In this document: positions 1-62,072 of the stretch, piece by piece
How the letters are laid out: each line of letters opens with the position of its first letter
Numbering within the stretch: the stretch's first letter is position 1
Assembly: GCA_044238365.1 (NCBI GenBank)
Contig: JBIIDM010000001.1
Location: 8,769-72,768, forward strand
DNA length: 64,000 bases
Source: Bdellovibrionota bacterium
Lineage (GTDB): Bacteria > Bdellovibrionota_C > UBA2361 > JBIIDM01
Reading direction: 5' to 3'
Notes under the pieces: model-generated
What the model was told of the DNA's origin: nothing
The model's input: the letters and a program-made list of their open reading frames with translations, nothing else
The model's database searches: none
Program-made: the position numbers and the translations under genes

Positions 1-687
1 CATTGCAGTGGTCACCAAAGTCATATGAAACGGCGGCTCCGGGAGAGACTCCCGGTGAAATGCCAGCCACTCCCCAATTTCCGGCGGTACTGCTAAAAAT
101 GGACCGGTGTATTGTTGCGCAATTGCTGCCCATGCAGGCGGAAGGTCAGAACCGGGAACCCCTCCAACGCCTACTCCGACGCCCGTCGTAACGACGCCAG
201 GCGCGCCACCACCAGGTGCGCCACCGCCAGGCGCGCCACCGCCAGGCGCGCCACCACCAGGCGCGCCACCACCAGGCGCGCCACCACCAGCGACTATTCC
301 ATTTGGTCCAGCAGAACCAAGCACTATTCCAAACGCCTGCGTGGTTGCCGGAGGCTGCTCACTGGCGCCCTCTATGTAGTACTCCATCTGTAACCGCTCA
401 AGGCGAACTCCCTGGGTGGTAATGTTATTGCGAACAGTCAAACAACTCTGGGATCCGATTACAGCCCCCTCAAGATTATCTGCATTGCTAAGTGACACGA
501 CAACGCCACCTGAAAATACGTCGGGCTGACATACTTTAGATGCATCTACACTATTATAGGAAGTCATTGTAACCGACATACCCTGATCGTTCGTCGCCCC
601 GCCCCCGCCGCATCCCGCTGACGCGAGAAGCAAAGAAGCTAAAAGTGCCTGAGAACTGTATTGTTTCTTACTCGTTAAACTTTTCAT
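1..687 (-). CDS. Lipoprotein with a Gly-rich (GGAPG)n repeat, immediately downstream of pilQ. The 5' end is at 687 and the gene runs off the left edge of the window.
   Basis: I translated the minus strand myself. ATG at 687-685 sits 9 nt after a GGGGG Shine-Dalgarno-like motif that directly follows the pilQ stop. The N-terminus MKSLTSKKQYSSQALLASLLLASAGCGG is a classic lipoprotein signal with lipobox. The frame stays open with no stop all the way to position 1. It contains (GGAPG)x6 encoded by a 15-bp tandem repeat. The plus-strand ORF 107..379 (Pro-rich) has no signal or RBS and is rejected. Confidence 0.55.
   Translation of the reverse strand, partial: MKSLTSKKQYSSQALLASLLLASAGCGGGGATNDQGMSVTMTSYNSVDASKVCQPDVFSGGVVVSLSNADNLEGAVIGSQSCLTVRNNITTQGVRLERLQMEYYIEGASEQPPATTQAFGIVLGSAGPNGIVAGGGAPGGGAPGGGAPGGGAPGGGAPGGGAPGVVTTGVGVGVGGVPGSDLPPAWAAIAQQYTGPFLAVPPEIGEWLAFHRESLPEPPFHMTLVTTAM
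197..289. repeat. Tandem repeat, 6 units of 15 bp (ccaggcgcgccaccR), each containing a GGCGCGCC core.
   Basis: Direct reading gives units at 197, 212, 227, 242, 257 and 272. It encodes a Gly-Gly-Ala-Pro-Gly repeat in the minus-strand lipoprotein. Confidence 0.9.
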
Positions 688-702: not shown

Positions 703-3225
703 TTAAATCGTCGCTTTCATTGCGGCATCATCAAAACTACCTTCGACAATGCGCGGAGTAACAAAGAATAGCAGTTCTTCATCTTTGTTAGTTCCATTTG
801 CTCTTCTAAAAAATGTCCCAAGTACTGGAATATCTTTAAAAAACGGCAATCCATTAAGGTCAGTCTGATCCGTTGTCTTGTATATTCCTCCGAGGGCAAA
901 AGTCTGCCCGCTGGAGATAAGGACCGATGAACGAGCACTTCTCTCAACTTCAGACGGAATCCCGTCTACTGACTGATTACCAAGTGTACTTGACTTCGCA
1001 TTCAGGTCGAGAAGTACATAATAATCGGGTGAAGCCTGGGGTGTAACAGTGAGAACAATACCAATTTCTATTGTCTCGGTAGCCGAATTTCCTTGACCTG
1101 CTGCACTTGCACCTTGTCCAGTCGCTACCGATACCCCCCCTTGTGGAAGTCGAATTCTTATCTTTTCAATGCTCTTGATAACCGCTGGTTTATTGTTGGT
1201 TGTCGCTACCGCCGGACGACTAATTATTCTTACCGTTCCTTCCTGCTCCAGCGCCGTCACAACGTCACTTAAGCTCTTGGTTCCATCGGCACTTCCCAAA
1301 AGTAAACTTACTGCATTGGTCGTTGATGCCGCAGCGTTATTCAACGTTCCTCCGATCTGCACGCTATTAGGAAATGATGAGCCGGTTGCGTTTCCGGTCT
1401 GAGGCGATTGTATGAAATTAAACCCCAACTGCGATCCGATATCCCTCAAAAGATTCCGAGTGGCTTCAACAATCTGCGTTTCAAGCAAGACTTGCGGAGT
1501 CCGCAAGTCAATCTTTGAAACAAGTTCCGCAACATTTGTCAGCCCACGTTTAGTGTCTCGTACGATTATCTGGTTAGTACGTTCATCGTAGCTGACCAGT
1601 CCCCTTTCGGTAACAACGCTATCAACCAGGGGCTTAAGCTCGGCAGCCCGCGCGTAGCTAACTCTCAGGTATTTTACATCTAACTCCTCGAGTTGCTCCT
1701 CTGCCTCCCTAGCTTGCTTTAATGCCTCTCTCTCATTCTTTAACCGCTCAACCGGCGCGATTCTAACTACATTTCCCTCTTGAACCTTATCTAGACCATT
1801 GGTCTTTAGTATAACGTCCAAAGCCTGGTCCCAAGGAACGTCAATGAGCCTAAGCGTAACCTTGCCAGTAACATCTTCACTCGCTATGATGTTGAGATTA
1901 GATACCTCGGCGATGATTCTTAAGGCATTGTCGATATCGGTTTCCTGCAAGTCCAGGGAGATAAGCCGTCCTGTATACTTCGGCTGATCTCCAAGGAATT
2001 TTTGAAAGTCGGGACCTTCAGAACTTCCACCCGTCGGAACAATATCAGCATCACTTGCGGGAGCTGCTTCGGGTACGTCCTTGGAAGCCGCTGCCTCTGT
2101 TAAGGCTTCAGGTTTTGCCTGCGCTCGAACATCATCGCGACCCTCGACACTCGACATAATGGACAGACTTCCATCCTGCTCAGGACTTACGTCGATGCGG
2201 CTTTCAGGCTTGGCGAATATCCTCAAAACTGTGTCACTACCTTCAGTAGTTGCTCTCACAGCCCTAATTAGCCCCTCTGAGCTTTTCGAAATAACCGGAG
2301 TTGGCGTGGACTGTTCGACTGAAGTACCAAAAATCCTGACAATGAACTCTGAAGGAGCCGTTCGGCTAACCTTGTACATAGGGGAAATTGTCGACGTCTT
2401 TGCTATAATCGTGTTGCTACCTCCCAGGGCCTCGACTATTTTCAGGTCGGTAAGAGCGCCAGTGTTTCTCGCCGTATCATTGGTTATGGAAGCTACTTCA
2501 GGAGTTGCCGATTGGATATCATCTGTTTCTAGCTTCGCATTATCATGTCCAACCTTCTCGGAGGTTATTGTTTCATGGATTGCCGGAATATTCAAAGCCG
2601 GAGTCGTCGTCGAAAGCGCGATCATGTCCGTTGCGACCTCACTCGCTGTCACTTTCGGCTGATACGCAGCATCACGAACCGTAACGATCAACCCGCCGGT
2701 TACCTCAGTGATTTCCGATCGCACACTCCCTACCCCTCCTGGAGTCAGCTCTATCACGACTCGAGTTGCCCCAAGCTTAGCTAAATGGCTTCCCGACGCG
2801 ACTCTTACGTCCTTGATAAACCGAGATCCTTGAACGCCGCCAGAAAGAGGCTGCAACGCAACCTTCTCCTTAAAGTCAAGTACTATTCGGTCCGGATTAG
2901 TCAGCTTGGTGCTTTCTAACTTACCAAATTTCGCCGCACCTGCTATAAAAATGCGATCGATATTGGCGCCTCTTAACAGCGTTATTTGCGAGGAATCCTC
3001 TCCTGAAGAGAATAAATCAGTTACCCCTTCGAGCTCACCTGCTCGAGCTAAATAGGTCGAACTAATCGTACCAATACCATCCGTCTTTAAATGGCTACTA
3101 TCGCTAATGCTTTGCGAAGGCATTCCTTTCTCATTCCTCGTTGTAGCACAACTAAAGAGCAAGGATGCGGAAGCGCAAACTACCACTGCACGATTTATCC
3201 GTCTGCTCACGTCACGTGATCTCAT
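703..3225 (-). CDS. pilQ: Type IV pilus secretin PilQ.
   Basis: 840 aa. The N-terminal signal/lipobox-like segment (LLFSCATT) is followed by AMIN-like repeats. The C-terminal secretin domain is present (VVRIAPVERL ... GLPFFKDIPVLGTFF ... VTPRIV). A GGGAGAG RBS precedes the ATG. It lies downstream of pilMNO. Confidence 0.9.
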   Translation of the reverse strand: MRSRDVSRRINRAVVVCASASLLFSCATTRNEKGMPSQSISDSSHLKTDGIGTISSTYLARAGELEGVTDLFSSGEDSSQITLLRGANIDRIFIAGAAKFGKLESTKLTNPDRIVLDFKEKVALQPLSGGVQGSRFIKDVRVASGSHLAKLGATRVVIELTPGGVGSVRSEITEVTGGLIVTVRDAAYQPKVTASEVATDMIALSTTTPALNIPAIHETITSEKVGHDNAKLETDDIQSATPEVASITNDTARNTGALTDLKIVEALGGSNTIIAKTSTISPMYKVSRTAPSEFIVRIFGTSVEQSTPTPVISKSSEGLIRAVRATTEGSDTVLRIFAKPESRIDVSPEQDGSLSIMSSVEGRDDVRAQAKPEALTEAAASKDVPEAAPASDADIVPTGGSSEGPDFQKFLGDQPKYTGRLISLDLQETDIDNALRIIAEVSNLNIIASEDVTGKVTLRLIDVPWDQALDVILKTNGLDKVQEGNVVRIAPVERLKNEREALKQAREAEEQLEELDVKYLRVSYARAAELKPLVDSVVTERGLVSYDERTNQIIVRDTKRGLTNVAELVSKIDLRTPQVLLETQIVEATRNLLRDIGSQLGFNFIQSPQTGNATGSSFPNSVQIGGTLNNAAASTTNAVSLLLGSADGTKSLSDVVTALEQEGTVRIISRPAVATTNNKPAVIKSIEKIRIRLPQGGVSVATGQGASAAGQGNSATETIEIGIVLTVTPQASPDYYVLLDLNAKSSTLGNQSVDGIPSEVERSARSSVLISSGQTFALGGIYKTTDQTDLNGLPFFKDIPVLGTFFRRANGTNKDEELLFFVTPRIVEGSFDDAAMKATI

Positions 3226-6486: not shown

Positions 6487-6569
6487 CTAACTTTGCAACC
6501 TAAGTTTCGGATAAGAAAAAAGGTAAGTGACTAAAGCAATTTTAGTCACTTACCTTTTTTCTTATCCGA
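6487..6569. repeat. Perfect 39-bp inverted repeat with a 5-nt loop (mini palindromic element). Its ends are related to the termini of the 180-bp MITE-like elements.
   Basis: The sequence aacctaagtttcggataagaaaaaaggtaagtgactaaa / gcaat / tttagtcacttaccttttttcttatccgaaacttaggtt was read directly. The arms resemble the element A/B terminus aacctgagttcgacgtaagaacaaaggtaa. Confidence 0.9.
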
Positions 6570-6688
6570 AACTTAGGTTGTCAGGTATTTTCCAGGTAGG
6601 GCGGCGTGTTAGAACACGTTTTGGAGCAGCTCAAATCTAAGGATGGCAATAATACAATTTTTTGGTGCTATATAGTGTCTACTCGATT

Positions 6689-8161
6689 CTAAGCCATTGA
6701 AGAGCGGGCTCGAAGGGCTGTTACCAGTTCTTGGGGAAGACCATCGAAGGAACCATTTGACATAAGGAGAACAATATCTCCCGTCCTTAGCTTAAGAAGA
6801 AGCGTTTTAATTATATCATCTACTGTAATGAGGGAGTACGCTTCCTTGCCGTGATTACGCAAGATTCCGGCTATCTCAGCCGTATTCAGGAGGTTCTCGA
6901 CCGAATCGTTATGTCGGGAAACCACTTCCTTTATAATGATTCCATCCGCAAACTTTAATGCTCGTTCGTATTCAGCCTGAAACACTCTGCGACGACTGGT
7001 ATTTGACCGCGGATCGAAAACAGCCCAGACCCTTGATTCCGGGTTGGCTGCCTTGACGCTTTTTAATGTTGCTGACACCGCTGAGGGATGATGGGCAAAA
7101 TCCTCAATTACCTGGACTTCCTGATCCTGATATAACATGGTAAGCCGTCGCTTTACGCCCTTAAAAGTTGAAATATGTCGAACAATATCCCCTAGGGGAA
7201 GTCCAATCGAAAGTAGGGAAACAATTCCTGCAGCAGCGTTAAGCGCATTATGAGAACCAATAAGCGGTATCCATACCGAAACCTCCTCTTTGGCTGCACC
7301 GGAGATGACGAAAGAAGTCCCAGCTTTATCTATTTTGATATTACCAATCCTCCAGTCGTTCGCAACCTCCTGACCATACGTTACCAGCCTTGCCGCGGAG
7401 CTCCTTCTCCATTTAGGTAAAAGAGACTTTATAGTTTCGTCATCCCCACACAATACGACCAAATCACCACTCGAGCGGCTGGACACCAAGCTGTCAAAGA
7501 CTTCAACAATGGCATTTAAATCCGAATAAATGTCAGCATGATCATATTCGATGGATGTTATAATCAGAATTCGTGGATCGTAAAAACTAAACTTTGGCAC
7601 CTTCGCAAAAAAGACCGAGTCGTACTCATCCCCTTCCAGCACTGTTTCACGTCCAGTACCGACACAAAGACTCCTATTCAGCCCCTCGATTTTAGCACCT
7701 ACGAAATAACCAGGTACACGATCTGCTTTCATTAAGATATGCGCAACAAGGGATGTTGTTGTTGATTTTCCGTGCGTCCCCGAAACAACAATCGGAAATC
7801 TCTCATTCACCAACAGATCGGCAAGGCAGGAGGGAAAACAAGTATAATTCAACTTCTGCATTTCTACATGCTGAACCTCTGGATTATCCGCACTTACCGA
7901 ATTTCCAATAATAACCAGCGATGCGTCGCCTGGAATATTATCTTTGTCGTAGTGATTAAATAGCGAAATGGCACTTTCCCGCAGAAGTGATGCCATGGGA
8001 TCATAAAATTCTTTATCACTCCCAGAAATCATAAATCCTAAATCTGCCAAGACCAAACCAAGTTGCCCCATCGCAACACCACAAATGCCGATGATATGAA
8101 TCTTTCCACCCTTGTTTACATTCTGAAGTTCCGTAACGCCACTAACACTAAAATAGACCAT
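6689..8161 (-). CDS. mpl: UDP-N-acetylmuramate:L-alanyl-gamma-D-glutamyl-meso-DAP ligase (murein peptide ligase, Mur ligase family).
   Basis: Mur-ligase N-terminus KIHIIGICGVAMGQLGLVLADLG is Mpl-like rather than MurC-like. A GTHGKSTT P-loop is present. The likely start is the internal Met (MVYFSV) at 8161, which removes the overlap with the upstream gene. The ORF track gives 6689..8197. Confidence 0.6.
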   Translation of the reverse strand: MVYFSVSGVTELQNVNKGGKIHIIGICGVAMGQLGLVLADLGFMISGSDKEFYDPMASLLRESAISLFNHYDKDNIPGDASLVIIGNSVSADNPEVQHVEMQKLNYTCFPSCLADLLVNERFPIVVSGTHGKSTTTSLVAHILMKADRVPGYFVGAKIEGLNRSLCVGTGRETVLEGDEYDSVFFAKVPKFSFYDPRILIITSIEYDHADIYSDLNAIVEVFDSLVSSRSSGDLVVLCGDDETIKSLLPKWRRSSAARLVTYGQEVANDWRIGNIKIDKAGTSFVISGAAKEEVSVWIPLIGSHNALNAAAGIVSLLSIGLPLGDIVRHISTFKGVKRRLTMLYQDQEVQVIEDFAHHPSAVSATLKSVKAANPESRVWAVFDPRSNTSRRRVFQAEYERALKFADGIIIKEVVSRHNDSVENLLNTAEIAGILRNHGKEAYSLITVDDIIKTLLLKLRTGDIVLLMSNGSFDGLPQELVTALRARSSMA

Positions 8162-8162
8162 A

Positions 8163-8816
8163 CTATTCCCCAATAAATTTCTCGTATAACTGCGCATATT
8201 CGATGTCTAACGCGTCATATCTTCGTTTCAGTTGAAAATAATGATCATTTCCCTTCGCTATCTGCGCTAACAGATCACCTATTTGCTCCTGTGAGTAAAG
8301 TAGTTCTTCTTGCATATCGTTTAGAAGCCGCGTTTGATCTTCTGTCATGGCTACCTCACTTCTAAGTTTCTCCAAGATACTCAGAGACTCATTAATCTGG
8401 TCCTTTAACGCTTCGTTGCGGAGCCTTAGCTCTTCCTCCCGGCCTTTAAGAATGTTAAGCTCTCCCTTGCTCTCGACTTCGCTGGCATCAAGTTCTCGTT
8501 CTGTTTCATCAAGCTCTCGCAGCCTCAGCTCAACGGATTCAAGTTCAACTTTTGCTATTGCAGCCCTACCTCTCTCCGCCTGTATAATATCTCCATGCTC
8601 GACAATCGACGAAACAACTACTTTCATCTCGTCAAATGGTACCAGATGCCCCTTAAATAACTCTATTCGGTCTATTACACCTTTACGTTCGACTAATATA
8701 TCACTTAAGCGTTGAAACTGATGACCCTGAGCATCCACCTTTCTCTTTGCAAAAAACCAGAAGATCCCAACAAGGAGTAGCGTTTCCACTAGTGCACATA
8801 TCAATATTAGAATCAT
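8163..8816 (-). CDS. Hypothetical membrane-anchored coiled-coil protein.
   Basis: 217 aa with an N-terminal TM segment (LICALVETLLLVGIFWFF) and a long heptad-rich E/L/R region. No recognisable enzymatic motif. Confidence 0.45.
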   Translation of the reverse strand: MILILICALVETLLLVGIFWFFAKRKVDAQGHQFQRLSDILVERKGVIDRIELFKGHLVPFDEMKVVVSSIVEHGDIIQAERGRAAIAKVELESVELRLRELDETERELDASEVESKGELNILKGREEELRLRNEALKDQINESLSILEKLRSEVAMTEDQTRLLNDMQEELLYSQEQIGDLLAQIAKGNDHYFQLKRRYDALDIEYAQLYEKFIGE

Positions 8817-8832
8817 AGGACATGTATTTAAT

Positions 8833-9008
8833 AACCTGAGTTCAACGTAAGAACAAAGGTAACTGGTTGAAATTGCTTTACAAACGAGGTGAGAGTGATA
8901 TCAAAGCGCAGGCTGAAGCTTGTTACGTCGAGCATTTTATATCATGAGCAACGAAGTGGATGAAGTAATTTCATCCATTTACCTCAGTTCTTACGTCTAA
9001 CTCAGGTT
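8833..9008. mobile_element. MITE-like palindromic repeat element, copy A (~176 bp, non-coding).
   Basis: Terminal inverted repeats aacctgagttcaacgtaagaac ... gttcttacgtctaactcaggtt enclose an internal imperfect palindrome. It is about 90% identical to copy B at 18979-19160. It is intergenic, between the coiled-coil gene start and the VWA gene end. Confidence 0.8.
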
Positions 9009-9145
9009 ATAAAATTCAGAGCTCAAAAAGGTGCTCAATCTACTAAAGATTATTCACGAAACGAGCCCCCATGGTGGTATGAAGTCCCTTGAAGGTGACG
9101 GATTCTGAATAATCCCAGCTAAAACCGTATCACACTTTGATAAGA

Positions 9146-12038: not shown

Positions 12039-12446
12039 GTCCTCATGTCAATGTCAATTTTTCATGACTTCCTCCCTATGTGGGCAGAGCGGGACGTGCC
12101 ATCCAGCTCGGTATTGATCCCTACGATCCTACCGTCATCGCATCAATACTCTATGATACTCTGCAAGCAGAAGGGCAAACTCTTAACGCCTGGCCCGGCG
12201 GGTTTATGTACCCACCATGGAGCCTTTGGATTTTCTTTCTGTTTTCCCTCCAGGCTACACATCAATTGCGCTCGCTGCTGGCTAGGCCCATTTTTTGCGG
12301 AGCCGTGATGCTGTCTCTATCCTTTCTTGCTGTGCTAGCGCAAATTCAAATTGAGCACCTTGCCTATTTTATGAACAAGTCCAGAGTGCCAGAGGATCAA
12401 ACCCGCGGCCCCTTCGGTGACGATTAAACCACACCGCCCCCCCACG

Positions 12447-18174: not shown

Positions 18175-18951
18175 CTACCGGCACCTCTCGGCTTCGAGTA
18201 CACGCTGGGATAAAAATAATCCAAATGAGATCATTGAAATGAAGTAAACCAACGCTTCGGTCGTAATCACCCCTTTCATCATGTCCTTTACCTGAACTAT
18301 CGGAGATAGCTTCAACAGCACATCTCCTGCAACTCCACCAATGCTCTGAGCCGGAGCGTGAATAACATAAAGCAATAGCATCACCACCATACTGGAAACG
18401 CCAGCAACCACCTGATTACTTGCACATGATGAGACTGCAACCCCTATGCTCGCAAAGCTAAGGGCACATAAGGTCATACCAAGCAGACCGCATAACATGG
18501 GAAGAATTTCTGGCGCAGGGTTGCCGTAATAGAGAAGTAATGACGGATAAGTGAACGTACCCACCATCATAATTATCAGCAAAGACGCCACGCCAAGAAA
18601 CTTACCCATAACGATATCGAAGACAGACAGTGGTGAAGTAAGAAGCAACTCAAAAGTGCCCCTCTTTTTCTCTTCCGCAACAACTCTCATCGTTAGTAGT
18701 GGAACAAGGAATACAAGGACCACTATCATGGTTCCGTACATACGCTCGACGACCCACTCATTTAGATTAGGTGCCTCCCCTTGCATAAAAGGCATAGAAC
18801 GAAACCTCACCAAGCTTTCATTAAAATAAAGGACGAGTACAAAAAAGAAATAACCCGCCATTACCAGAAACCCAGTGATTGAAAAATACGCTAGGGGCGA
18901 GACAAAGAACGAAAAGACCTCTCTTCGAGCAATCGCAATTACGTTTTTCAT
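18175..18951 (-). CDS. ABC-2 family transporter permease (GldF-like).
   Basis: About 6 TM helices. The ORF track start at 19002 lies inside repeat element B, so I place the start at the internal Met (MKNVIAIARREVF) at 18951, just outside the element. Confidence 0.7.
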   Translation of the reverse strand: MKNVIAIARREVFSFFVSPLAYFSITGFLVMAGYFFFVLVLYFNESLVRFRSMPFMQGEAPNLNEWVVERMYGTMIVVLVFLVPLLTMRVVAEEKKRGTFELLLTSPLSVFDIVMGKFLGVASLLIIMMVGTFTYPSLLLYYGNPAPEILPMLCGLLGMTLCALSFASIGVAVSSCASNQVVAGVSSMVVMLLLYVIHAPAQSIGGVAGDVLLKLSPIVQVKDMMKGVITTEALVYFISMISFGLFLSQRVLEAERCR

Positions 18952-18978
18952 GATGTCAATATTCCCAAAAAAATTATT

Positions 18979-19160
18979 AGCCTGAGTTCGACGTAAGAAC
19001 AAAGGTAAATGGTTGAAATTGCTTTAGAAACGAGGCGTGCAGTGATATAAAAGCGCAGGCTGAGAAGCTTGCTACGTCGAGCATTTTATATCATGAGCAA
19101 CGAAGTGGATGAAGTAATTTTAACCATTTACCGCACAGTTCTTACGTCGAACTCAAGTTA
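18979..19160. mobile_element. MITE-like palindromic repeat element, copy B (~182 bp). It is inserted between the ABC ATPase and permease genes of one operon.
   Basis: The ends are cctgagttcgacgtaagaac ... gttcttacgtcgaactcaagtt. The internal sequence aligns to copy A over its full length. The element abuts the ATPase stop codon. Confidence 0.8.
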
Positions 19161-19934
19161 TTAGCTGGCTCCGTGCTTAGTCTCGCCACCATTCGAGGAT
19201 GGAATTGCGTCATCATTTTCGATGGGTTTATCGTAGCTAACACACTCAAGAAACAGTTGCTCAAGAGTTCGATCTCTTGTTATTTCTGCGAGTTTTCCCT
19301 CCCGTACAATCGTTCCCCTATTAATAATAACAACCTTGCTGCAGACCATGGTAACTTCTGGAAGGATATGGGTACTCAACAATAAAGTCTTTTCTTTGCC
19401 CAGGTCCTTGATCAGGTTTCTAATATCTATGATTTGACGCGGATCTAACCCACTCGTAGGCTCATCCAGAATCACCACTTGAGGATCGTGAACTATTGCC
19501 TGTGCAAGGCCAACCCTCTGCCGATACCCCTTGGAAAGCTGACCACAAAGGCGCCGAAACACATCCTTGAGAAAACAACGCTCGGCTGCTTTCTCAACAC
19601 TTTCCTTTAAATTTTTGCTCGCTACTCCTTTAATCCGTGCTACAAAATACAGGTACTCCTCCACTGACATCTCCTCATACAAAGGGGGATTTTCCGGAAG
19701 ATACCCGATTACCCGCCTTACCTGGTCAGCTTCTTTTTTTATGTCAAATCCGGCTATTTTTGCCGTTCCAGATGAAGGCGGCAAAAAAGTAGACAACATT
19801 CGAATGGTAGACGTCTTTCCGGCACCGTTTGGACCGAGAAACCCGACTATCTCACCTCGTTCAGCAGTAAAACTAACTTGATTTACGGCCTTATATTCTC
19901 CGTATGCTTTAGAAAGTTTATGTACCTCGATCAT
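19161..19934 (-). CDS. ABC transporter ATP-binding protein (GldA-like).
   Basis: Walker A GPNGAGKTS, ABC signature LSKGYRQRV and Walker B ILDEPTSGLD are all present. Confidence 0.9.
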   Translation of the reverse strand: MIEVHKLSKAYGEYKAVNQVSFTAERGEIVGFLGPNGAGKTSTIRMLSTFLPPSSGTAKIAGFDIKKEADQVRRVIGYLPENPPLYEEMSVEEYLYFVARIKGVASKNLKESVEKAAERCFLKDVFRRLCGQLSKGYRQRVGLAQAIVHDPQVVILDEPTSGLDPRQIIDIRNLIKDLGKEKTLLLSTHILPEVTMVCSKVVIINRGTIVREGKLAEITRDRTLEQLFLECVSYDKPIENDDAIPSSNGGETKHGAS

Positions 19935-22690: not shown

Positions 22691-22814
22691 CTCTTTGTTA
22701 CTCAAAAGAAGACTTATAGATTCCTAGTAACTCTACTCAGGTGCCCTCAACATAAATGCGCCCCAAAAGCGAGCTAACCAGCTGTAACTGCCAGTGATTT
22801 TTCAAGGTCGGGGA

Positions 22815-22912
22815 AAGTGATTGTTTTGTGAATGAGGCGTGGTACTCCAGGTCGCAGTGAACAAAATCAATCACTGGACGAAGAGATTGGGAAAATACCT
22901 GAGCAGTTACCT
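22815..22912. repeat. Degenerate or chimeric repeat fragment (copy D) sharing modules with element C.
   Basis: gaggcgtggtactccaggtcgcagtga (22834-22860) matches 36276-36303 in about 25 of 28 positions. It also shares gacgaagagat and a cctgag..cagttaccttt end-like segment. A local 14-bp inverted repeat flanks the shared module. Confidence 0.6.
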
Positions 22913-23785: not shown

Positions 23786-23949
23786 CTTAAAAAAATTTAA
23801 AACACAACGTTCAAACCCAGACGATACGCAAAAAGGGCCTTAAGTGACTCTGATTACCTCCTCTCTTCTCATATTATAAGTTGCTCGACCTAGCATGCTA
23901 TGCCGCGCTAATCTCATTAACGCCTGGTGTCTAAAGTAATTCTATCCCG

Positions 23950-23976
23950 TTACCTTTGTTCTTATCCGAAACTCAG
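23950..23976. repeat. Solo terminal-repeat remnant of the mini-palindrome subfamily.
   Basis: ttacctttgttcttatccgaaactcag closely matches the right arm of the 6487-6569 element (ttaccttttttcttatccgaaacttagg). No partner arm is visible nearby. Confidence 0.55.
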
Positions 23977-24102
23977 CTTATTACGGTGCTACCCATTTAG
24001 AGGAAATTTTAAAACTGTTACAAAACACGACGCTTCTGAGGTATGATGCTATGCCGATACTAATCGTGGCATCCTAAATTAAAGAAAGAAAAGAAAAAAA
24101 CA

Positions 24103-33270: not shown

Positions 33271-33326
33271 GTGTTATAAAGTCAGTCACTAATTCTGTTT
33301 TAACTAACCCGAATTTTTCGTCCTAA

Positions 33327-33491
33327 AAAGAGCAGCCTTGCGGTTTAAAGCGGCTCCATATATTTGAAATTACAAAGAATTTAGTGATTTTTGGTGACAA
33401 TCAAATATCACCGATACGATGAGATCCAAAATCGCTAAATTCTTTGTAATTTCAGCTAGATGGGCCACTTCAAACCGCAAGGCTGCTCTTT
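33327..33491. mobile_element. Second, unrelated palindromic repeat-like element (~165 bp).
   Basis: The ends are aaagagcagccttgcggtttaaag ... ccacttcaaaccgcaaggctgctcttt, a perfect 19-bp core inverted repeat. The internal sequence ttgaaattacaaagaatttagtgatttt pairs with aaaatcgctaaattctttgtaatttcag. It lies in the divergent promoter region between the membrane protein and the Wzc-like gene. Confidence 0.75.
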
Positions 33492-33863
33492 CTAGACTCA
33501 TGGAAGGAACCACCGCCAGTAGTTACCATACTTCGTGAATTCAGATTACAAGTAAAGAGGGTAGTTACGAAACGCTCAGAATGCATCGGACCCTGACTAC
33601 CGGTCTGGATCGAACAAACCACAGAACTCGCCGATTCCCGTCAAAAAAATTAGTTAAGAAACGCTGAAAAACGCACCGTCTTGCAACACTATCCGGTAAG
33701 CGAATTTCGTAACGAAATCCAGTGATAACACGCTGATATTAATATAACTTTCGAGCCTTAAAACATACTGTTCATTTTTTTAACCCCTTATTATTGGTTA
33801 AGTTACCATAATACGGTAAAAAGTAGAGGCGTCTATATTTAAACTTTTGAGGCCACAATCAAC

Positions 33864-36167: not shown

Positions 36168-36194
36168 GAAAATCCGGGCACCCCACCACCTGCT

Positions 36195-36350
36195 AACCTG
36201 AGTTCGACGTAAGAACTGCGGTTGCTAGGGTTCGCGAGGTTGGTTGATGTCGAGGCAAGAGGTACTTTCAGGAACGAGACGTGGTACTCCACGTCGCAGT
36301 GACGGAGAGTACCTCTTAACGAAGAGATCAGCCAACCTCGCGAACCCTAG
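36195..36350. repeat. Chimeric repeat element, copy C. It has an A/B-type left terminus plus a different palindromic module.
   Basis: It starts aacctgagttcgacgtaagaac (identical to the B terminus). It then continues with ctagggttcgcgaggttgg ... ccaacctcgcgaaccctag and an inner hairpin gaggtac..gacgtggtactccacgtcgcagtga..gtacctc. No right A/B terminus is present. It abuts the manC stop. Confidence 0.7.
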
Positions 36351-37790
36351 CTAAACGCGGCCGTAGACGTCAGTAAAACGGACGATATCATCCTCACCTA
36401 AGTAGCTTCCTGTCTGCACCTCAATCAGCTCGAGAGGAATCAAACCCGGATTCTTGAGATAGTGCTTGGTTCCTAAGGGGATATACGTCGAGCGGTCCTC
36501 ACCCAGCAAGATCTCCTCATCGCCCCGTCCCACTACCGCGGTGCCTTTTACAACGACCCAATGCTCAGCTCGATGGTGGTGCATCTGAATGGAGAGCTGC
36601 TGGCCCGGATGTACGGTGATTCTTTTTACCTGGAAGCGATCCTCTAGAGCTATCGTCTCATAGCTCCCCCAAGGTCGGTAGACCTTCTTATGAAACTGAT
36701 ATTCTTGGCGTCCCTGAGCCTGCAGGTGGGTTACTATCTTTTTTACCTCCTCCACTCGGTCCTTTGCAGCTATCAAAATCGCATCTGATGTCTCAACTAT
36801 CACTTGGTCGGATATGCCGAGTGCCGCAATCAAGCGTCCTTCTGAGTGGATAAAGCAACCGTGAACATCCTCTACAATTACATCACCGAGGGTTACATTG
36901 TCTGATGAATCTTTGGGTTGAATCTCCCACAGGCTTGACCACGATCCAACATCACTCCAACCAGCCTTGAGAGGAATAGTCACCGCTTTGCTCGTCTTTT
37001 CCATTACCGCGTAATCGATAGAATTCGAGGGGCTGGAATTAAAAGCATCCTCTTCAAGACGAACAAAATCCAGGTCGACCCTTCTATTTTCATAGGCAGC
37101 CTCACAAGCTTTAAGTATCGCTGGTTCAAATTGTCCAAGTTCAGATAAAAAGTTCGCTGCTCCGAATAAGAACATTCCACTATTCCAGAAGTAGTCCCCG
37201 GACTTAACGTACTCCTCCGCCACCTTTAGATTCGGCTTTTCAACAAATCGCGCTATTGGTAGCCAGGAGCCCTTTCCGGCTTCTCCCTTAACTACCTGAA
37301 TATACCCGTAACCCGTATGAGCAGCTTCCGGAACCACACCGAACGTTACCAGCTTACCGATATTAGCAGCTTCAATCCCAGACCTTACAGCCTGATGAAA
37401 AGCACCGACATCCTTGATCACATGATCAGCTGGAAGTATCAACAACAATGCCCCTGAGCCATATCTATGAATACTGTCGAGAGCGGCAACTGCTATCGCC
37501 GGTGCCGTATTCCTGGGTGAAGGCTCCAGGATAATGGTTCCTTTCCCTAAAAGACCCTTTTGCTGAAGTTCTGAAGCAACTATAAAACGATGCTCTGAAT
37601 TAGAGATTATTACCGGTGGTTGAATTTCTTCGCCAATTATATTGTTTCCCTTAACCAGCACCCGATCAATTGTTGCCCCTAAGAGGGAATCATCTCCGAT
37701 GAGTGACAAAAACTGCTTAGGAAACGCCGCCCGAGAAAGAGGCCATAAACGACTTCCCGATCCCCCGGACAAAATCACTGGAACAATCAT
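36351..37790 (-). CDS. manC: Mannose-1-phosphate guanylyltransferase / mannose-6-phosphate isomerase (bifunctional).
   Basis: The N-terminal segment is PVILSGGSGSRLWPLSR. A C-terminal cupin domain is present (HHRAEHWVVVKGTA). Confidence 0.85.
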   Translation of the reverse strand: MIVPVILSGGSGSRLWPLSRAAFPKQFLSLIGDDSLLGATIDRVLVKGNNIIGEEIQPPVIISNSEHRFIVASELQQKGLLGKGTIILEPSPRNTAPAIAVAALDSIHRYGSGALLLILPADHVIKDVGAFHQAVRSGIEAANIGKLVTFGVVPEAAHTGYGYIQVVKGEAGKGSWLPIARFVEKPNLKVAEEYVKSGDYFWNSGMFLFGAANFLSELGQFEPAILKACEAAYENRRVDLDFVRLEEDAFNSSPSNSIDYAVMEKTSKAVTIPLKAGWSDVGSWSSLWEIQPKDSSDNVTLGDVIVEDVHGCFIHSEGRLIAALGISDQVIVETSDAILIAAKDRVEEVKKIVTHLQAQGRQEYQFHKKVYRPWGSYETIALEDRFQVKRITVHPGQQLSIQMHHHRAEHWVVVKGTAVVGRGDEEILLGEDRSTYIPLGTKHYLKNPGLIPLELIEVQTGSYLGEDDIVRFTDVYGRV

Positions 37791-46557: not shown

Positions 46558-49032
<2,475 letters not shown>

Positions 49033-49137
49033 TCATTAGCGCCTTCTGTCACCAGAGTCCCGCCCAACTCCGGTCATTCCCAGCTACAGATATCTAAATC
49101 GAGCAAACCAACCTTGAGCAGCTCGGAAAGAACGCCA

Positions 49138-50199
49138 TTATAAAAACAAAACATCAAAACCTTCGTTCTGTATACTATCGGCCAGTTCCAGGTTGGTCGA
49201 GGTAACAAATACCTGCCATCCTGTAGCCCTTATTACGCGAAGTAAGGACCTTCTACGTTTTTCATCAAGTTCAGAATCAACATCATCAAGAATAAGAACA
49301 GGGGTCTGATGAAGGGAATTAGATAGGTTTTGGGCCGTTGCTACCGTGAGCGCCAATGTTGCAGCCCTTATTTGCCCCTGCGATCCGAACTCCTTAATAG
49401 GCCTCCCACCCATCAGGATCTCCATATCATCAAGGTGGATGCCGATTTGAGGACGTCTGAACCGAAGCTCTTTCTGCAACTGTCTCTCTAATGTGCTGAA
49501 AGCCTCCTGCTCAGATCGAACTACACCAAAGGTTGTCACGTATCTTATTTTGAGATCAACTCCCTCGCCGAATAGCTCTTGAAACACCACCGAAAAATTT
49601 GCATTAAGCTTATCGATTACTTCGTATCGACGCTGAATTATCTCCCAAGCTGATTTTGCAAGTAACTCGTTCCACGTTCTAATATCTGAAGGATTTGCGC
49701 CTTGTTTAAGCAGCGTTCTCTTATGGGCAAGTGTTCGACCATAAAAATTGTACAGCTCTATTAAAGGTGGATTAAGTTCAATAATATGTTTATCAACGAG
49801 CCCCCTCCGTACGACTGCCCCTCCCTTTACGACTCCCAGACTATCAGGGGAAAAACCTATCACCAGAAAACTGCCCACAAAATCCTTGATCTTGGTAATT
49901 AACTTACCATCCCGAGATATCTGCCGTCGCCCGGACTCGACCGTTACTGACAAATTAAAAGAACCAATATCATCGGAACAAAGACCCGAAACTATAGCTG
50001 CAGAGTTTTCATGTTTAATAAGTGCCCGAAGCTTTGAACGCTTCAATGAAACTCCTGTCCCTAACAGATAAATCGCCTCTACCAGATTCGTTTTTCCTCT
50101 ACCATTTTGAGATAGAATAAAATTCAGGCCCCCTCCAAATGAAAATGAGTTTTCCGCAAAGTTCCTAAAATTCTGTAAATACAATGATCGTATCTGCAA
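49138..50199 (-). CDS. recF: DNA replication and repair protein RecF.
   Basis: The Walker A is GQNGRGKTNLVEAIY. It sits in the conserved position between dnaN and gyrB. Confidence 0.9.
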   Translation of the reverse strand: MQIRSLYLQNFRNFAENSFSFGGGLNFILSQNGRGKTNLVEAIYLLGTGVSLKRSKLRALIKHENSAAIVSGLCSDDIGSFNLSVTVESGRRQISRDGKLITKIKDFVGSFLVIGFSPDSLGVVKGGAVVRRGLVDKHIIELNPPLIELYNFYGRTLAHKRTLLKQGANPSDIRTWNELLAKSAWEIIQRRYEVIDKLNANFSVVFQELFGEGVDLKIRYVTTFGVVRSEQEAFSTLERQLQKELRFRRPQIGIHLDDMEILMGGRPIKEFGSQGQIRAATLALTVATAQNLSNSLHQTPVLILDDVDSELDEKRRRSLLRVIRATGWQVFVTSTNLELADSIQNEGFDVLFL

Positions 50200-50214
50200 A
50201 ATCTTCCCCTTCGA

Positions 50215-51324
50215 TTACTCAATTCTTATCGGCATTACCATGGCTATTGAGTGTTCATCATCGCAAGGGTAGAATCTGGCTGGCTCATTTCCATTCAATA
50301 TTTCAATAACGATCTTTTCTGATATCAAAAACGAGCTAACAACATCTATAAGGAACCGAGCATTGAAACCAACACTGATTGGTTCATCGGTACCAACAAT
50401 GACCAACCGTTCTTCACTCTCTCCAAGCTCTGGACTACGGCTTGATATTCGCATGCTATCCTCTGCGATGTCGACCCTTACCCCCTGCCCCTGAGAGGCA
50501 AGGATAAGCGAAACACGGCGCAATGCGTCAGAGAACTCCTGGACCAGGATTTCAATCTTGACTCCTGAGGACTTGGGAAAAGCCCGAGCATAATCGGGAT
50601 AATCAACATCCATAAGACGAAGCGCAAACTTTGAGGAATCACTCTTAAAAACGACAAACCCCCCTCCGAATCCAACTTCAACCTCTTTAAGATGACCATC
50701 GTCAAAAACTCTACGTAGTTCAGAAAGGCCTCTTTTAGGGAAAAGCACCCTATGCCCAAGCCGCAAATCGGGGATATCTCTAGTTGAAAGCGCAAATCTA
50801 TGTCCGTCAGTGGCAACCATAGTTACCCTTCCATCGGAAGTCGGTTCAAAACAAATACCACTCAAATTAAACTTAGCCTCATCATGAGAAGCCGCATAGA
50901 TAGTTCTGTTGATCATTTCAGCAAAAATACGGCAATCGATCTTCCGATCTGTCACCAGGTCTAATCCCGGAATTTTTGGAAACTCAAGAGCGCCCAGCAC
51001 ATTCAATTTATATTTGGTGGTATTAGATTTAATTTCAAGCTTTTTTGCGTCCGAGAGTGAAAGATTCATCAAGCCTGTCGGCAGCTGGCGAACAACATCG
51101 GCAAACATCTTTCCGGGGACTGAAAATGTAGCTGATTGCTTTACTTCGGCAGGTACTTGCATAGAAACAGAAACTTCCAGATCCGTCCCCGACACTTCTA
51201 TTTGCCCATTATCTATCCGCACTAAAAAATAAGACATAATCACAAGAGGAGATTTTTTGCCTATAAATGCCTGGAGTGTATTCAAGGCCTTCGACAAATC
51301 ATCCTGCTGAACGACACACGACAT
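50215..51324 (-). CDS. dnaN: DNA polymerase III beta sliding clamp.
   Basis: 369 aa with a three-domain beta-clamp pattern. It lies directly downstream of dnaA. Confidence 0.9.
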   Translation of the reverse strand: MSCVVQQDDLSKALNTLQAFIGKKSPLVIMSYFLVRIDNGQIEVSGTDLEVSVSMQVPAEVKQSATFSVPGKMFADVVRQLPTGLMNLSLSDAKKLEIKSNTTKYKLNVLGALEFPKIPGLDLVTDRKIDCRIFAEMINRTIYAASHDEAKFNLSGICFEPTSDGRVTMVATDGHRFALSTRDIPDLRLGHRVLFPKRGLSELRRVFDDGHLKEVEVGFGGGFVVFKSDSSKFALRLMDVDYPDYARAFPKSSGVKIEILVQEFSDALRRVSLILASQGQGVRVDIAEDSMRISSRSPELGESEERLVIVGTDEPISVGFNARFLIDVVSSFLISEKIVIEILNGNEPARFYPCDDEHSIAMVMPIRIE

Positions 51325-51637
51325 AAAAGACTCCTATATCTAGATTAAATATATATATTCATAGTAGTAGTAGTAGTTAGGTGTGGTTTCTGTTGATAGA
51401 CTGCCTAACTAATTGAAACAGTAGAACTTCCCAGGCTCGGTTGTTGTGGTTTTTAGCTTGGCGTATTCCCGGGTTATGCCCACAAAAGCATTTTGTGGAC
51501 TATCTAGATATAGATAGTCCACAGGTAGTGCGTAGGTTTTCCACAGGAATTACCGGAAAAAACATAAAAAAATCAACAAGATGGCTCCGTTGATAACAAA
51601 ACCACCGCTTGCGACAATCTAAAATCAGAAACATTCT
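51325..51637. promoter_or_regulatory. Candidate oriC in the dnaA-dnaN intergenic region.
   Basis: DnaA-box-like 9-mers were read directly: TTTTCCACA at 51537-51545, and the inverted pair TGTGGACTA (51494-51502) / TAGTCCACA (51515-51523) around a TCTAGA core. An AT-rich stretch taaatatatatattcatagtagtagtagtag (51345-51376) could act as an unwinding element. Gene orientation and plus-strand G+T richness switch around this locus. Confidence 0.55.
51362..51376. repeat. (TAG)5 trinucleotide microsatellite within the candidate origin.
   Basis: tagtagtagtagtag was read directly. Confidence 0.9.
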
Positions 51638-53194
51638 CTAGCTGAAAAGTTTCCTTTCTATTTCGGAGACAAGTTCTCTCACAGAAGCCTCGTCGCTGAC
51701 CTTGTTTGCGACGACACTCGCGGCGTGGATTACGCTGGAGTGGTCTCGTCCGCCAAATTTTTCGCCAATCTCGGGGTAGGAAGCTGTTGTATGTTTCCTG
51801 CAGAGGTACATGGCTACATGTCGAGGAAACGAGAGATTTTTTGTCCGTCGTTTAGATATTATTTCTGACACTTTGATTGAGAAGTGTTGTGCTACCGCCT
51901 TCTTGATGTCCTCTATGTTGACTGATATTTTTTTCGGTTCTAGTAGGGGTTTGAGGGCCACTTGGGCCATTTGCAGCGTAATTGGAACCTTCTGCAGGCT
52001 GCTAACGGCATGCAATCTGGTTAGTGCTCCCTCTAATTCCCTAACGTTTGAGGAGATATTCTCGGCTATAAGGTATGCAACGTCCTCGGGAAGGTGAAAG
52101 TTCTCAAGGAGAGCTTTGCGTTTAAGAATTGCAGCTCTAGTCTCAAAATCTGGCGCTTGCAGATCCGCCGTTAAGCCCCAGGCAAAGCGGGTCTGAAGCC
52201 GCTCTTCAATTCCATCAATTTCGGAAGGAATTTTGTCAGAAGTCATTACGATCTGACGCTTGCAACTATAAAGGGCGTTAAACGTGTGGAAGAACTCTTC
52301 CTGGGTTCTTTCCTTTCCGCTTATGAACTGAATGTCGTCAATAAGGAGTATCTCAATGCTTCGTAGCCTTGTCTTGAATTCCTCCATTTTTGCGTTCCGA
52401 AGCGCCTGAATGAGCTCATTCGTAAAGGCCTCAGAAGAAATATAAAGCACTTTCGAGTTGGGGTTTCGGCTGAGAGCGGCATTTCCAATCGAGTGTAGAA
52501 GGTGTGTTTTGCCAAGCCCTACGCCGCCGTAGATAAATAGAGGGTTGTAGCTTTCACCTGGTTGTTCAGCGACTCTACAGGCAGCGGCGTTACAGAATTG
52601 ATTGTTGCTTCCAACTACAAAGCTTTGAAAGGTGTATTTGGGGTTTAGGTTGTTGAAAGTGTGGTGATCGTTTGGCGTACTGGTAGATTCGACGGGCTCG
52701 GCGGTGGGACTGGCGTGGCGTCGTTTTATAACGGTTCGAGATGATCCATCAAGTTGGCTTGCTAGTAGCGATTCATTTGGTGCCTTTGGTTCCTGAACAA
52801 CGTACGTGAGAATCAAGTTGGGAACGTTAAGCAATTCCTTAAGAAGCGTTTCTATTCGCCGGGAGTAGTTTCGCTCTATAAGTTGGCACTGAAGTTTTGT
52901 CGGCGCAGAGATTGTTAGGGCTGTTTCGTCAAATTCCCTTACGTCACCTTCTGTAAGTTCAACGATTAGCGGTTCGAAGTATGCGGAAAAGGCATGTTGA
53001 CCTACTTCGGTCTTAATCACCTCCAACATGTCATTCCATGCGTTTACTACTAATCCTTCGTGAATGGGTTCTCGGACAAAAGGTACGCCGTTTTGAAGTT
53101 GGTTGTAGGTGGTGTTCTCTCTAGTTGTGTTTTTGGTTGTGTCACTAGTAGTTGACTGGGTTGTTGATAAAAATAAATCTGGCGCAATATTCAT
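51638..53194 (-). CDS. dnaA: Chromosomal replication initiator DnaA.
   Basis: The AAA+ Walker A is GGVGLGKTHLLHSIG. The C-terminal DNA-binding domain carries GGRDHSSVIHA. The N-terminus has a T/N-rich low-complexity ~50-aa extension before domain I. Confidence 0.95.
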   Translation of the reverse strand: MNIAPDLFLSTTQSTTSDTTKNTTRENTTYNQLQNGVPFVREPIHEGLVVNAWNDMLEVIKTEVGQHAFSAYFEPLIVELTEGDVREFDETALTISAPTKLQCQLIERNYSRRIETLLKELLNVPNLILTYVVQEPKAPNESLLASQLDGSSRTVIKRRHASPTAEPVESTSTPNDHHTFNNLNPKYTFQSFVVGSNNQFCNAAACRVAEQPGESYNPLFIYGGVGLGKTHLLHSIGNAALSRNPNSKVLYISSEAFTNELIQALRNAKMEEFKTRLRSIEILLIDDIQFISGKERTQEEFFHTFNALYSCKRQIVMTSDKIPSEIDGIEERLQTRFAWGLTADLQAPDFETRAAILKRKALLENFHLPEDVAYLIAENISSNVRELEGALTRLHAVSSLQKVPITLQMAQVALKPLLEPKKISVNIEDIKKAVAQHFSIKVSEIISKRRTKNLSFPRHVAMYLCRKHTTASYPEIGEKFGGRDHSSVIHAASVVANKVSDEASVRELVSEIERKLFS

Positions 53195-61400: not shown

Positions 61401-62072
61401 AGTGAGCTCGCGCTTTCTTTGCGCGATATAGTACTGGTAGAGCCAGCCAATGATTTCCACCCCCTCTAACCAATCGGATTCGGGTATTGAAACGACTAAG
61501 TCTCCGATCAAAGACTCTTCTCCAAGAAGAGTGTTCGGTAGCAGGGAGGAAAGCGCTAGTGTTATCTCTTCAAAAAGAAACGGCATAGCACCGTGTAGCT
61601 CGTTACACTGGGAGATAAGAAGAGTTCTAAATATGCTTTCGTTCGACTTTCCCGTTGCTACCATTTCCTTGAGTTGAATAATGTCCCCTGCGTGTGGAAA
61701 TTTCGCGACTTTTTTTGATAATACGCGGAGATTGCTTAGGCTAGGGTCAGTTGCATGGCTCAGGATCTGATGAGAAAGGAAGCCATGAACCTCCATGTAC
61801 CGAAGGGCTACGAGGCGGTTGAACCAAGTATATGAGGTTCGTTCGATTACATCATTGAATGAGTGTGCAGAGAAGAGTTGGGTGAGTTCTTCAAGTATGA
61901 GAGTACACTCATCTTCGGTATAAAATCCGGTAGATTTAAGGACCTTCGATGCCTTTTCAGAAGGGCGAGACCGTTTCGGAGAGAATCCGAGTGAATTTGC
62001 CCGAGAGGCGATAGCTTCGGTGAAGTTTTCTCGAGCTTTGACCGCATATTTTTTTAAGGGTTTAATATTCAT
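58497..62072 (-). CDS. Large PglX-like N6-adenine DNA methyltransferase (BREX PglX / type IIG family), with no partner BREX genes in the window.
   Basis: 1191 aa. The N-terminal KKYAVKARENF ... SYTWFNRLVALRYMEV block matches what I recall of PglX-family N-termini. SAM motif I is ILDPACGSGHILVEAF and catalytic motif IV is VLANPPY. A long C-terminal region follows. No brxA/B/C, pglZ or brxL is nearby. Confidence 0.7.
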   Translation of the reverse strand: MNIKPLKKYAVKARENFTEAIASRANSLGFSPKRSRPSEKASKVLKSTGFYTEDECTLILEELTQLFSAHSFNDVIERTSYTWFNRLVALRYMEVHGFLSHQILSHATDPSLSNLRVLSKKVAKFPHAGDIIQLKEMVATGKSNESIFRTLLISQCNELHGAMPFLFEEITLALSSLLPNTLLGEESLIGDLVVSIPESDWLEGVEIIGWLYQYYIAQRKRELTGKKLEPGDIPAATQLFTPRWIVRYLVQNTLGKTWLGSHRSPVLKSRWEYLMPEFSEQNLTSKRSKGTKSQLDPLNPENLTILDPACGSGHILVEAFDTLKDMYLEMGYSPSEIAGKILNSNLYGLDIDERAAQMASFALLMRARIDNPKILNGFDTPVPHIYSLESVDKAQINAACTEILPKDSETVSRFKGKTRYGVPSCVENGQIVESISKDDFIRFAAYFSNASSLGSLTIVPAHEQILLTTAVHFLNHVIATKDASARKHALALMQLVLRALLLCSQYDCVLANPPYLSSKYYPDDLRSYLNANYAAYSRDMFSAFIIRNWQLTKDDGHIGFMSPFVWMFITSYRNLRDFVLNNTTITSLIKLQYSAFDGATVPICTFTLQKKRIEDFKGVFINLEPFKGRDVQSPKVIEAITYPECGWLYFRSNKDFNALPEKPLSFWLEDAAFDAFRENSLLGDKYPTRVGIQTSNNARFIRRWFEVSQESIAFECTSRKEAALSGKKWFPYNKGGKYRQWYGNHHYVINFENDGQEISEFLHTLRKTSKGTLGDPAFQFRRCVTWSDVSSSHFGARYLPYGFISDISGSGIFPSDDVFEAVCCYLCSKVAEKFIKAINPTLHFQTGNISSLPVPAKGLEPLQPKLKPLFERAVEIMKEEMSHHEENWTFLRLPFIPKEKSISLEDSIRSFLEMRKSQRTKLESIENKNNLIFTQAFGLPEPKESESEGSTSTYPVWSEVDCVKRLISYGVGVILGRYKLDMVGIQDSPGAHPCSPKDSLVLLSKDADSDSSRDLYELFKVFLGLTYGKKNLNKNLNYLSQRLFSAGYTSQVEDAENILRNYFFKDFFKEHAKTYGKRPIYWELCSGPKQSFKALTYGHLFTPFVLKTLRDKYLKPQYRKIQNLADSVPTSTRMAASINTTLQELEGFQERLNLLISERLTIKPDDGVLINLQKISSIISEVPSLQLEDAA

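Follow-up and report, generated by a model that had tools for sequence, protein, structure and literature searches.

A dispersed family of miniature palindromic elements with IS982-type termini in an uncultured Bdellovibrionota lineage

Two short, non-coding palindromic elements lie in a stretch of 64,000 nucleotides from a Bdellovibrionota bacterium (the whole stretch is called the window hereafter) and, with a probability of about 85%, are non-autonomous miniature transposable elements (MITEs) derived from an insertion sequence of the IS982 family. The MITE family to which they belong is hitherto uncatalogued; IS982-derived MITEs as such have already been described. A reading of the DNA that used only its letters and a list of its open reading frames (the sequence-only reading) had proposed a MITE-like, non-coding family, and this proposal is now borne out by further family members, by target-site duplications (TSDs), and by empty sites. 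The parent types that it offered as examples, IS630/Tc1 or IS200/IS605, have to be given up, because the termini are of the IS982 type and the duplication comprises 5 bp of variable sequence instead of TA.

With boundaries set by comparison with other copies of the family (Table 1), the two full window copies align over their whole length at 89.9% identity, so that the earlier estimate of about 90% stands, with refined boundaries. Both copies are closed by terminal inverted repeats (TIRs) of 21 bp with the consensus ACCTGAGTTCGACGTAAGAAC, from which each end of the window copies departs by one mismatch; across 17 aligned copies, the TIRs are unvarying save for scattered single changes. If up to three mismatches are allowed, the window contains the 22-mer terminus five times, as compared with no occurrence in 100 shuffles. 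Between the termini, the interior of copy 1 is imperfectly palindromic, its 56-nt arms being complementary at 84% of positions, and the whole copy is predicted to fold into a hairpin of −75.3 kcal/mol (z = −9.3) on the plus strand and of −63.1 kcal/mol (z = −8.7) on the minus strand. Open reading frames entirely within copies 1 and 2 do not exceed 35 aa. A 275-aa frame with a TTG start does reach into copy 2, but it represents the flanking permease gene called too long; by homology, that gene starts with the ATG at 18949–18951. The inverted-repeat termini, the palindromic interior, the capacity for long-hairpin folding (as a prediction), and the lack of coding content that had been read from the sequence are thereby all upheld.

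Table 1. Positions in the window of the repeat elements, their target-site duplications, and the adjoining ATPase gene.
Feature	Position	Strand	Details
Copy 1 left TSD	8829–8833		TAATA; its reverse complement, TATTA, is single in L010 and L011
MITE copy 1	8834–9007	+	174 bp; TIRs 8834–8854 (ACCTGAGTTCAACGTAAGAAC) and 8987–9007
Copy 1 right TSD, decayed	9008–9012		TATAA; 3/5 positions match
Copy 2 left TSD	18975–18979		TATTA
MITE copy 2	18980–19158	+	179 bp; TIRs 18980–19000 (GCCTGAGTTCGACGTAAGAAC) and 19138–19158
Copy 2 right TSD	19159–19163		TATTA
ABC ATPase gene	19161–19934	−	TAA stop, 19161–19163, within right TSD of copy 2
81-bp member	6498–6578		Variant terminus ACCTAAGTTTCGGATAAGAAA; perfect palindrome, 40-nt arms, 5-nt loop
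Truncated member, one arm only	about 23880–23978	−	Terminus AGCTGAGTTTCGGATAAGAAC, read on minus strand
Solo terminus	36196–36223	+	Exact 21-mer, then TGCGGTT, the sequence of the MITE right-arm type

The family is neither limited to two copies nor confined to the window, as the sequence-only reading had supposed in treating the pair as members of a larger family. When the terminus pattern is relaxed, eight termini representing five elements are found in the 64 kb; these include, besides the two full copies, an 81-bp member, a truncated member, and a solo terminus that adjoins an unrelated long hairpin. Outside the window, the exact 20-mer CCTGAGTTCGACGTAAGAAC retrieves 47 further loci from the JGI metagenome collection, mostly from metagenomes Ga0169931 and Ga0114940 and otherwise from TARA and two further samples. 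Several types can be differentiated among these members: a 173-bp type with 86–98% mutual identity and 82–91% identity to the window copies; a 174-bp type, in which the stem has another sequence and its complementarity is kept; marine types of 192–242 bp with a different interior; minis of 53–54 bp (L034 and L005) that are scarcely more than two termini; and solo hairpins of 29 nt (L042 and L056). The species-representative genome collection adds at least two matches, in Maribacter and Tannerella metagenome-assembled genomes (MAGs). The exact 20-mer is absent from the viral contig collection, a distant blastn search of plasmids with the whole element returns no match, and a search of the full text of papers with a 17-mer finds nothing. 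Moreover, the copies are not a local segmental duplication, as had likewise been maintained, since the flanks outside the 5-bp TSDs are unrelated.

The 81-bp member is flanked by the 5-mers TTGCA and TGTCA, which match at 3/5 positions. An old insertion would not ordinarily be so perfect a palindrome, and its state suggests either that it formed very recently or that one arm has been corrected against the other. In four Logan contigs, the sequence stops inside the repeats (three in copy 2, and L072 in the 81-bp palindrome), as is expected for dispersed repeats.

The parentage of the family is indicated by its terminus. In a short-query blastn search of annotated plasmids, the terminus matches 32 records of Piscirickettsia, 30 of Leptospira, and 5 of Nostoc. 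For instance, plasmid pPSB1-1 of Piscirickettsia salmonis (NZ_CP012509.1) carries a 1078-bp element with ACGTGAGTTCGACGTAAGAAC at its opening, GTTATGTCGAACTCACGT at its close, and the 8-bp duplication TGTTATTA on either side; its broken reading frame matches NF033520 transpos_IS982 (1.6e-34 and 1.2e-17) as well as PF13612, and its left end agrees with the TIR of the MITE at 20/21 positions. Similarly, IS982 copies from Leptolyngbya, Leptospira noguchii, Moraxella, and Acinetobacter lwoffii bear AC(C/G)TGAGTTCGA/G at both ends, the A. lwoffii copy having at both ends ACCTGAGTTCGA, which is common to the MITE. A copy from Persicobacter bears this pattern at its right end only, the start of the record cutting the copy, and, past ACCT, the ends of the copies from Vibrio and Francisella have diverged further. 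Apart from the unannotated Persicobacter record, these plasmid copies from Leptolyngbya to Francisella are annotated as IS982 family and measure 976–1037 bp. In addition, a Maribacter MAG contains the exact 22-mer followed, 85 nt on, by a truncated IS982-type N-terminus (MNSTNKITEIFCSIDDFC) that aligns with intact IS982 transposases (tblastn, E = 2e-9), and in a Nostoc plasmid the terminus precedes, by about 770 nt, the coding sequence of an IS982-type transposase. The identity of the MITE terminus as an IS982-family terminal repeat accounts for the occurrence of the same 20-mer in several phyla. Beyond the 21-bp terminus, comparison by eye reveals no resemblance between the MITE and the interior of the IS982 copies inspected.

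A cognate transposase had been put forward as something to look for elsewhere. No IS982 transposase gene occurs in the 64-kb window, the 6.5 kb that follow it, or any of the 47 metagenome loci, and none of the 30 larger open reading frames of the window is a transposase according to a Pfam scan. Likewise, no autonomous parent is found beside the solo termini of L013, L026, L039, L043, and L046; the gene upstream of the solo terminus in L026 is IS30-like and unrelated. As a separate observation, a Leptospira interrogans record (NZ_CP020413.2; L060) has two IS982-type termini in the same orientation (2794–2814 and 3003–3023), 209 nt apart and with no transposase nearby, and similar matches exist in 30 Leptospira records; these sequences suggest that IS982-derived miniature elements or remnants may be present in Leptospira as well.

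The second line of evidence concerns the duplications that flank the elements. Among all fetched loci, 23 elements are complete in that both termini are present, and a comparison of the five bases on each side of them gives perfect 5-bp direct repeats for 19, with 17 different sequences (e.g., TAAAG, TGACA, GATAA, CTGTA, TCTTA, TATTA, and GAATA). Control 5-mers, both those next outward and the distal ones, show 0/22 perfect matches, and no pair of flanking 5-mers fits an inverted repeat. Two shorter readings of the flanks were rejected, namely a TA or 3-bp duplication and a 3-bp duplication combined with a fixed A...T terminus; since duplications that begin with G or C (GATAA, GAATA, and CTGTA) or end with G (TAAAG) are repeated in full, the length is fixed at 5 bp. 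The base counts over the 19 duplications (T in 16 at position 1, A or T predominating at positions 2–3, T in 12 at position 4, and A in 18 at position 5) give the target consensus T-W-W-T-A. Five autonomous IS982 copies with clear duplications have 6, 6, 7, 7, and 8 bp, as against 5 bp in the MITE; the range for the IS982 family in ISfinder is 3–9 bp, which would include 5. Furthermore, the 53-bp element of L034, with little beyond its two TIRs, has its own duplication (TCTTA), so that the terminal repeats alone appear, from sequence comparison, to be enough for transposition. The recent activity that had been proposed for the family can be argued only weakly for the window copies, which are 90% identical and of which one has a duplication decayed to TAATA/TATAA.

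The same duplications weigh upon the other transposition systems to which such an element could be ascribed. The TA that stands just outside ACCTGAG in many copies would suit a TA-targeting MITE of the IS630/Tc1-mariner type, but several junctions lack TA (e.g., GATAA, TGACA, and TAAAG), the duplication is of 5 bp in 17 different sequences, and the terminus matches IS982-family ends; this origin is extremely improbable. Tn3-family elements have ends of about 38 bp beginning with GGGG and make 5-bp AT-rich duplications, and a Tn3-derived miniature element (TIME) would consequently agree with the length and AT-richness of the TSDs; the ends here, however, are of 21 bp, begin with ACCTGAG, and match IS982-family elements whose transposase is identified by profile, leaving a TIME as a very unlikely identification. 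About equally slight is the chance of a REP/REPIN-like or IS200/IS605-type palindrome moved in single-stranded form by a Y1 (RAYT/TnpA) transposase. The terminus can fold upon itself, as in L042 and L056, where AACCTGAGTTC-GACGTAA-GAACTCAGGTT forms a hairpin of 11 bp without a mismatch, and the full element resembles an inverted doublet, both of which would suit such movement; yet Y1 transposition is not known to leave a target duplication, whereas 19/23 elements here have one, the same termini bound insertion sequences of the DDE type (IS982), and no Y1 transposase is present among the 30 larger window frames scanned against Pfam. Integron attC sites, DNA-uptake sequences, dif sites, and RNA families, ribozymes included, were also considered and rejected: there is no Rfam match, the TSDs speak against non-DDE mechanisms, and the sequence does not appear to fit the R'/R'' boxes.

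Insertion is further documented by relatives that lack the copies, whose loci were retrieved through flanking proteins. At copy 1, the minus strand of the window reads CTGAATT-TTATA-(174-bp element)-TATTA-AATACATG, and the corresponding sites read CTGAATT-TATTA-AATACATG in L010 and CTAAATT-TATTA-AATGCATG in L011 (Mpl identity of 74% and 77%, respectively). The site of copy 1 in these two relatives is thus clean, contiguous, and unoccupied. At copy 2, the element is absent from L006 (ATPase identity of 96%), in which the spacer measures about 55 nt as compared with 209 nt from ATPase stop to permease start in the window. Alignment of L006 with the window extends as far as GCCAGCTAA in one flank and TA(T/A)(A/T)AATTTTT in the other; because 30 nt of sequence peculiar to L006 stand at this point, the site is not clean. 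The sequence before insertion at copy 2 would have been GCCAGC-TAATA-ATTTTTTTGGG, and the stop codon of the ATPase gene would have lain inside the target and been restored when the target was duplicated. The exact family terminus does not occur in the syntenic 13–20 kb of L006–L009. A diverged member with a variant TTTCGG-type terminus follows directly after the PBP1A stop codon in L007 and L008, and contig L011 begins inside a terminus, which indicates that the family exists in the wider lineage at different sites. At the site designated c6, the alignment with L007 and L009 is too diverged for exact boundaries.

As to the surroundings of the window copies, the precise placement at gene boundaries that had been claimed holds with small corrections: the right TSD of copy 2 contains the ATPase stop codon, the left end of copy 2 is 28 nt from the permease ATG, and copy 1 lies between a VWA gene, whose stop codon is 138 nt upstream of it, and a 217-aa gene, whose ATG follows 17 nt after its end. 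The copies sit in presumably transcribed spacers of operons, and copy 2 would be co-transcribed within the ABC transporter operon. The genes adjoining the repeats resemble gldA/F/G. A Bacteroidota host, which these genes and the matches in the Maribacter and Tannerella MAGs might suggest, was rejected in view of the Mpl and GyrB homologues. The window as a whole belongs to the core chromosome, comprising pilMNOQ, mpl, the VWA protein, PBP1A, and an ABC ATPase/permease/auxiliary set, together with signal peptidase, gyrA, wzc/manC, cytochrome oxidase, and gyrB-recF-dnaN-dnaA; for Mpl and GyrB, the closest homologues with a name come from Oligoflexia, Bdellovibrionales, 'Deltaproteobacteria', and Dadabacteria MAGs at 45–65% identity.

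The long hairpin invites the question of whether folding itself is under selection. An alignment of 17 full copies gives a consensus fold of 70 pairs, in which the 21-bp terminal helix undergoes no compensatory change, whereas the next helix is changed in a compensatory manner in 11/27 pairs. Altogether, 15 pairs are compensatory, as compared with 5.9 ± 1.8 in column shuffles and 1–5 in slid controls; most of this signal originates from one split between two subfamilies (3/17 sequences), and the covariation therefore counts positions and not independent events. The pattern fits a terminus that would be read as sequence and a stem that would be kept as structure. There is a small chance, to be entertained tentatively, that the inner stem is selected for pairing and that the hairpin has a function of its own, which might be transposition as a folded single strand or a structure in operon RNA.

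Another reading, in which a host-selected structured element (a hairpin that stabilizes or terminates mRNA, or a palindrome that binds protein) is retained for its hairpin and mobility is secondary, can be deemed unlikely. Although the pairing of the inner stem is kept by compensatory changes between subfamilies, and the copies occur in transcribed operon spacers, the covariation derives largely from the single subfamily split, and the copies are missing at the same sites in close relatives. Moreover, the window has no Rfam match at gathering thresholds and only chance-level matches to microRNA and lncRNA families at E values up to 10; promoter-like sites are absent from copy 1 and copy 2; the lone terminator-like match in each copy is weak and lies on the strand opposite the flanking genes; and on that opposite strand, too, the predicted fold is stabler in both window copies.

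With the elements taken as IS982-derived MITEs, their mobility can be envisaged as follows. A DDE transposase of the IS982 family, encoded elsewhere in the genome or formerly present in it, would bind both TIRs and cut the target with a 5-bp stagger, thereby moving the element in trans. The preference for T-W-W-T-A would steer insertions to AT-rich gene ends, and, as TAA stop codons can lie in such targets, copies could come to abut stop or start codons and leave the genes intact. The inner stem, presumably kept complementary by compensatory change, may help to bring the ends together; alternatively, its pairing may make the insert tolerable when transcribed in operons.

The host lineage also contains at least three other families of structured palindromic repeats. 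A second hairpin family has window copies at 22783–22912 and 36224–36351, both between convergent genes, and only an apex of about 55 nt is common to the two (78% identity, including GTGGTACTCCAsGTCGCAGTGA); their stems are long and non-homologous, each being internally complementary. L017 (165–294) holds a 92% identical copy of the repeat at 22783–22912, and the copy at 36224–36351 together with the adjoining solo terminus (36190–36365) has a predicted folding energy of −105.9 kcal/mol. Since neither shared termini nor TSDs are seen in this second family, it is not obviously a MITE and may be something else. A third dispersed palindrome occupies 33323–33495 of the window; inverted repeats are nested inside it, and its ends are CTAAAAAGAGCAG...CTGCTCTTTYTAG. 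Related copies occur in L030 (836–938) and L040 (355–403), and no flanking duplication is evident. A fourth family, whose members measure about 190 bp, has TAGCCCGGATTATTCACGAG as its termini and TTCAGACTTCCATGTGTTCCAACACTATGTCAGCC as a conserved centre. It is represented in L010 (about 7660–7850, with more in 7440–8510), L011 (8150–8290), L030, L044, L048, and others; it fills the same intergenic spacers in relatives of the window organism, has no copy in the window itself, and adjoins other repeat families in L017 and L039.

Several further features of the window deserve mention in their own right. The genes gyrB, recF, dnaN, and dnaA stand in a row on the minus strand (46558–53194), the cumulative GC skew reaches its minimum near 52 kb (about position 52000), and the chromosomal replication origin is probably within the window. 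Near the origin region, a 1191-aa protein with N6-methylase domains of the Eco57I/MmeI type (58497–62072) is probably a type IIG/IIL restriction-modification enzyme. Between PBP1A and a peptidyl-prolyl isomerase, relatives carry a GT87 glycosyltransferase gene (L006, 9540–10955; L011, 4253–5182), whereas the same spot in the window (12045–12427) has only small open reading frames of 87 and 115 aa, so that gene content differs there. At the left edge of the window (165–305), seven tandem, G+C-rich units of 15 nt (approximately CGCCAGGCGCGCCACCACCAG) are present, and no complete open reading frame of at least 150 aa is listed over them.

The repeats are of practical consequence for annotation and assembly, in which they break short-read contigs and mislead the programs that call open reading frames, and they mark lineage-specific insertions within housekeeping operons near the probable replication origin. 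The IS982-family TIR is conserved almost to the base in Pseudomonadota, Spirochaetota, Cyanobacteriota, Bacteroidota, and the host lineage, and can consequently be used as a search key for such elements. The fixed terminus set against a covarying stem also makes the family a convenient natural system in which to examine the requirements of MITE transposition; the general understanding of transposition is left unchanged.

The nearest described counterparts are MITECca01 and MITECca02 of Cardinium, which are of the IS982 type, derive from ISCca4, and amount to 169 copies of about 240 bp (PMC9769881). By their description, these elements are alike in being short (about 240 bp versus 174–179 bp) and without a transposase, in their IS982-like inverted repeats, and in their many dispersed copies that are mostly intergenic and lineage-specific (PMC9769881). 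They differ in that the host is an endosymbiont of the Bacteroidota and not an uncultured free-living lineage, and in that the parental insertion sequence is present and intact in Cardinium, whereas none is found here in the window, the 6.5 kb beyond, or the 47 loci. Autonomous IS982 elements share with the MITE the terminal repeat, ends that start with AC, and short, AT-rich direct TSDs; they are, however, 976–1078 bp long, encode a DDE transposase, and, where measurable, have TSDs of 6–8 bp, as opposed to a non-coding element of about 175 bp with TSDs of 5 bp. The comparison with Correia, RPE, and BIME elements that had been drawn earlier is retained as an analogy of form only. The Correia elements of Neisseria, along with ERIC, RUP, and BOX, are likewise imperfect palindromes of about 100–200 bp, intergenic and often co-transcribed, but bear no sequence relationship to the present family; Correia elements duplicate TA, whereas the MITE described here duplicates five variable bases and has IS982-type ends.
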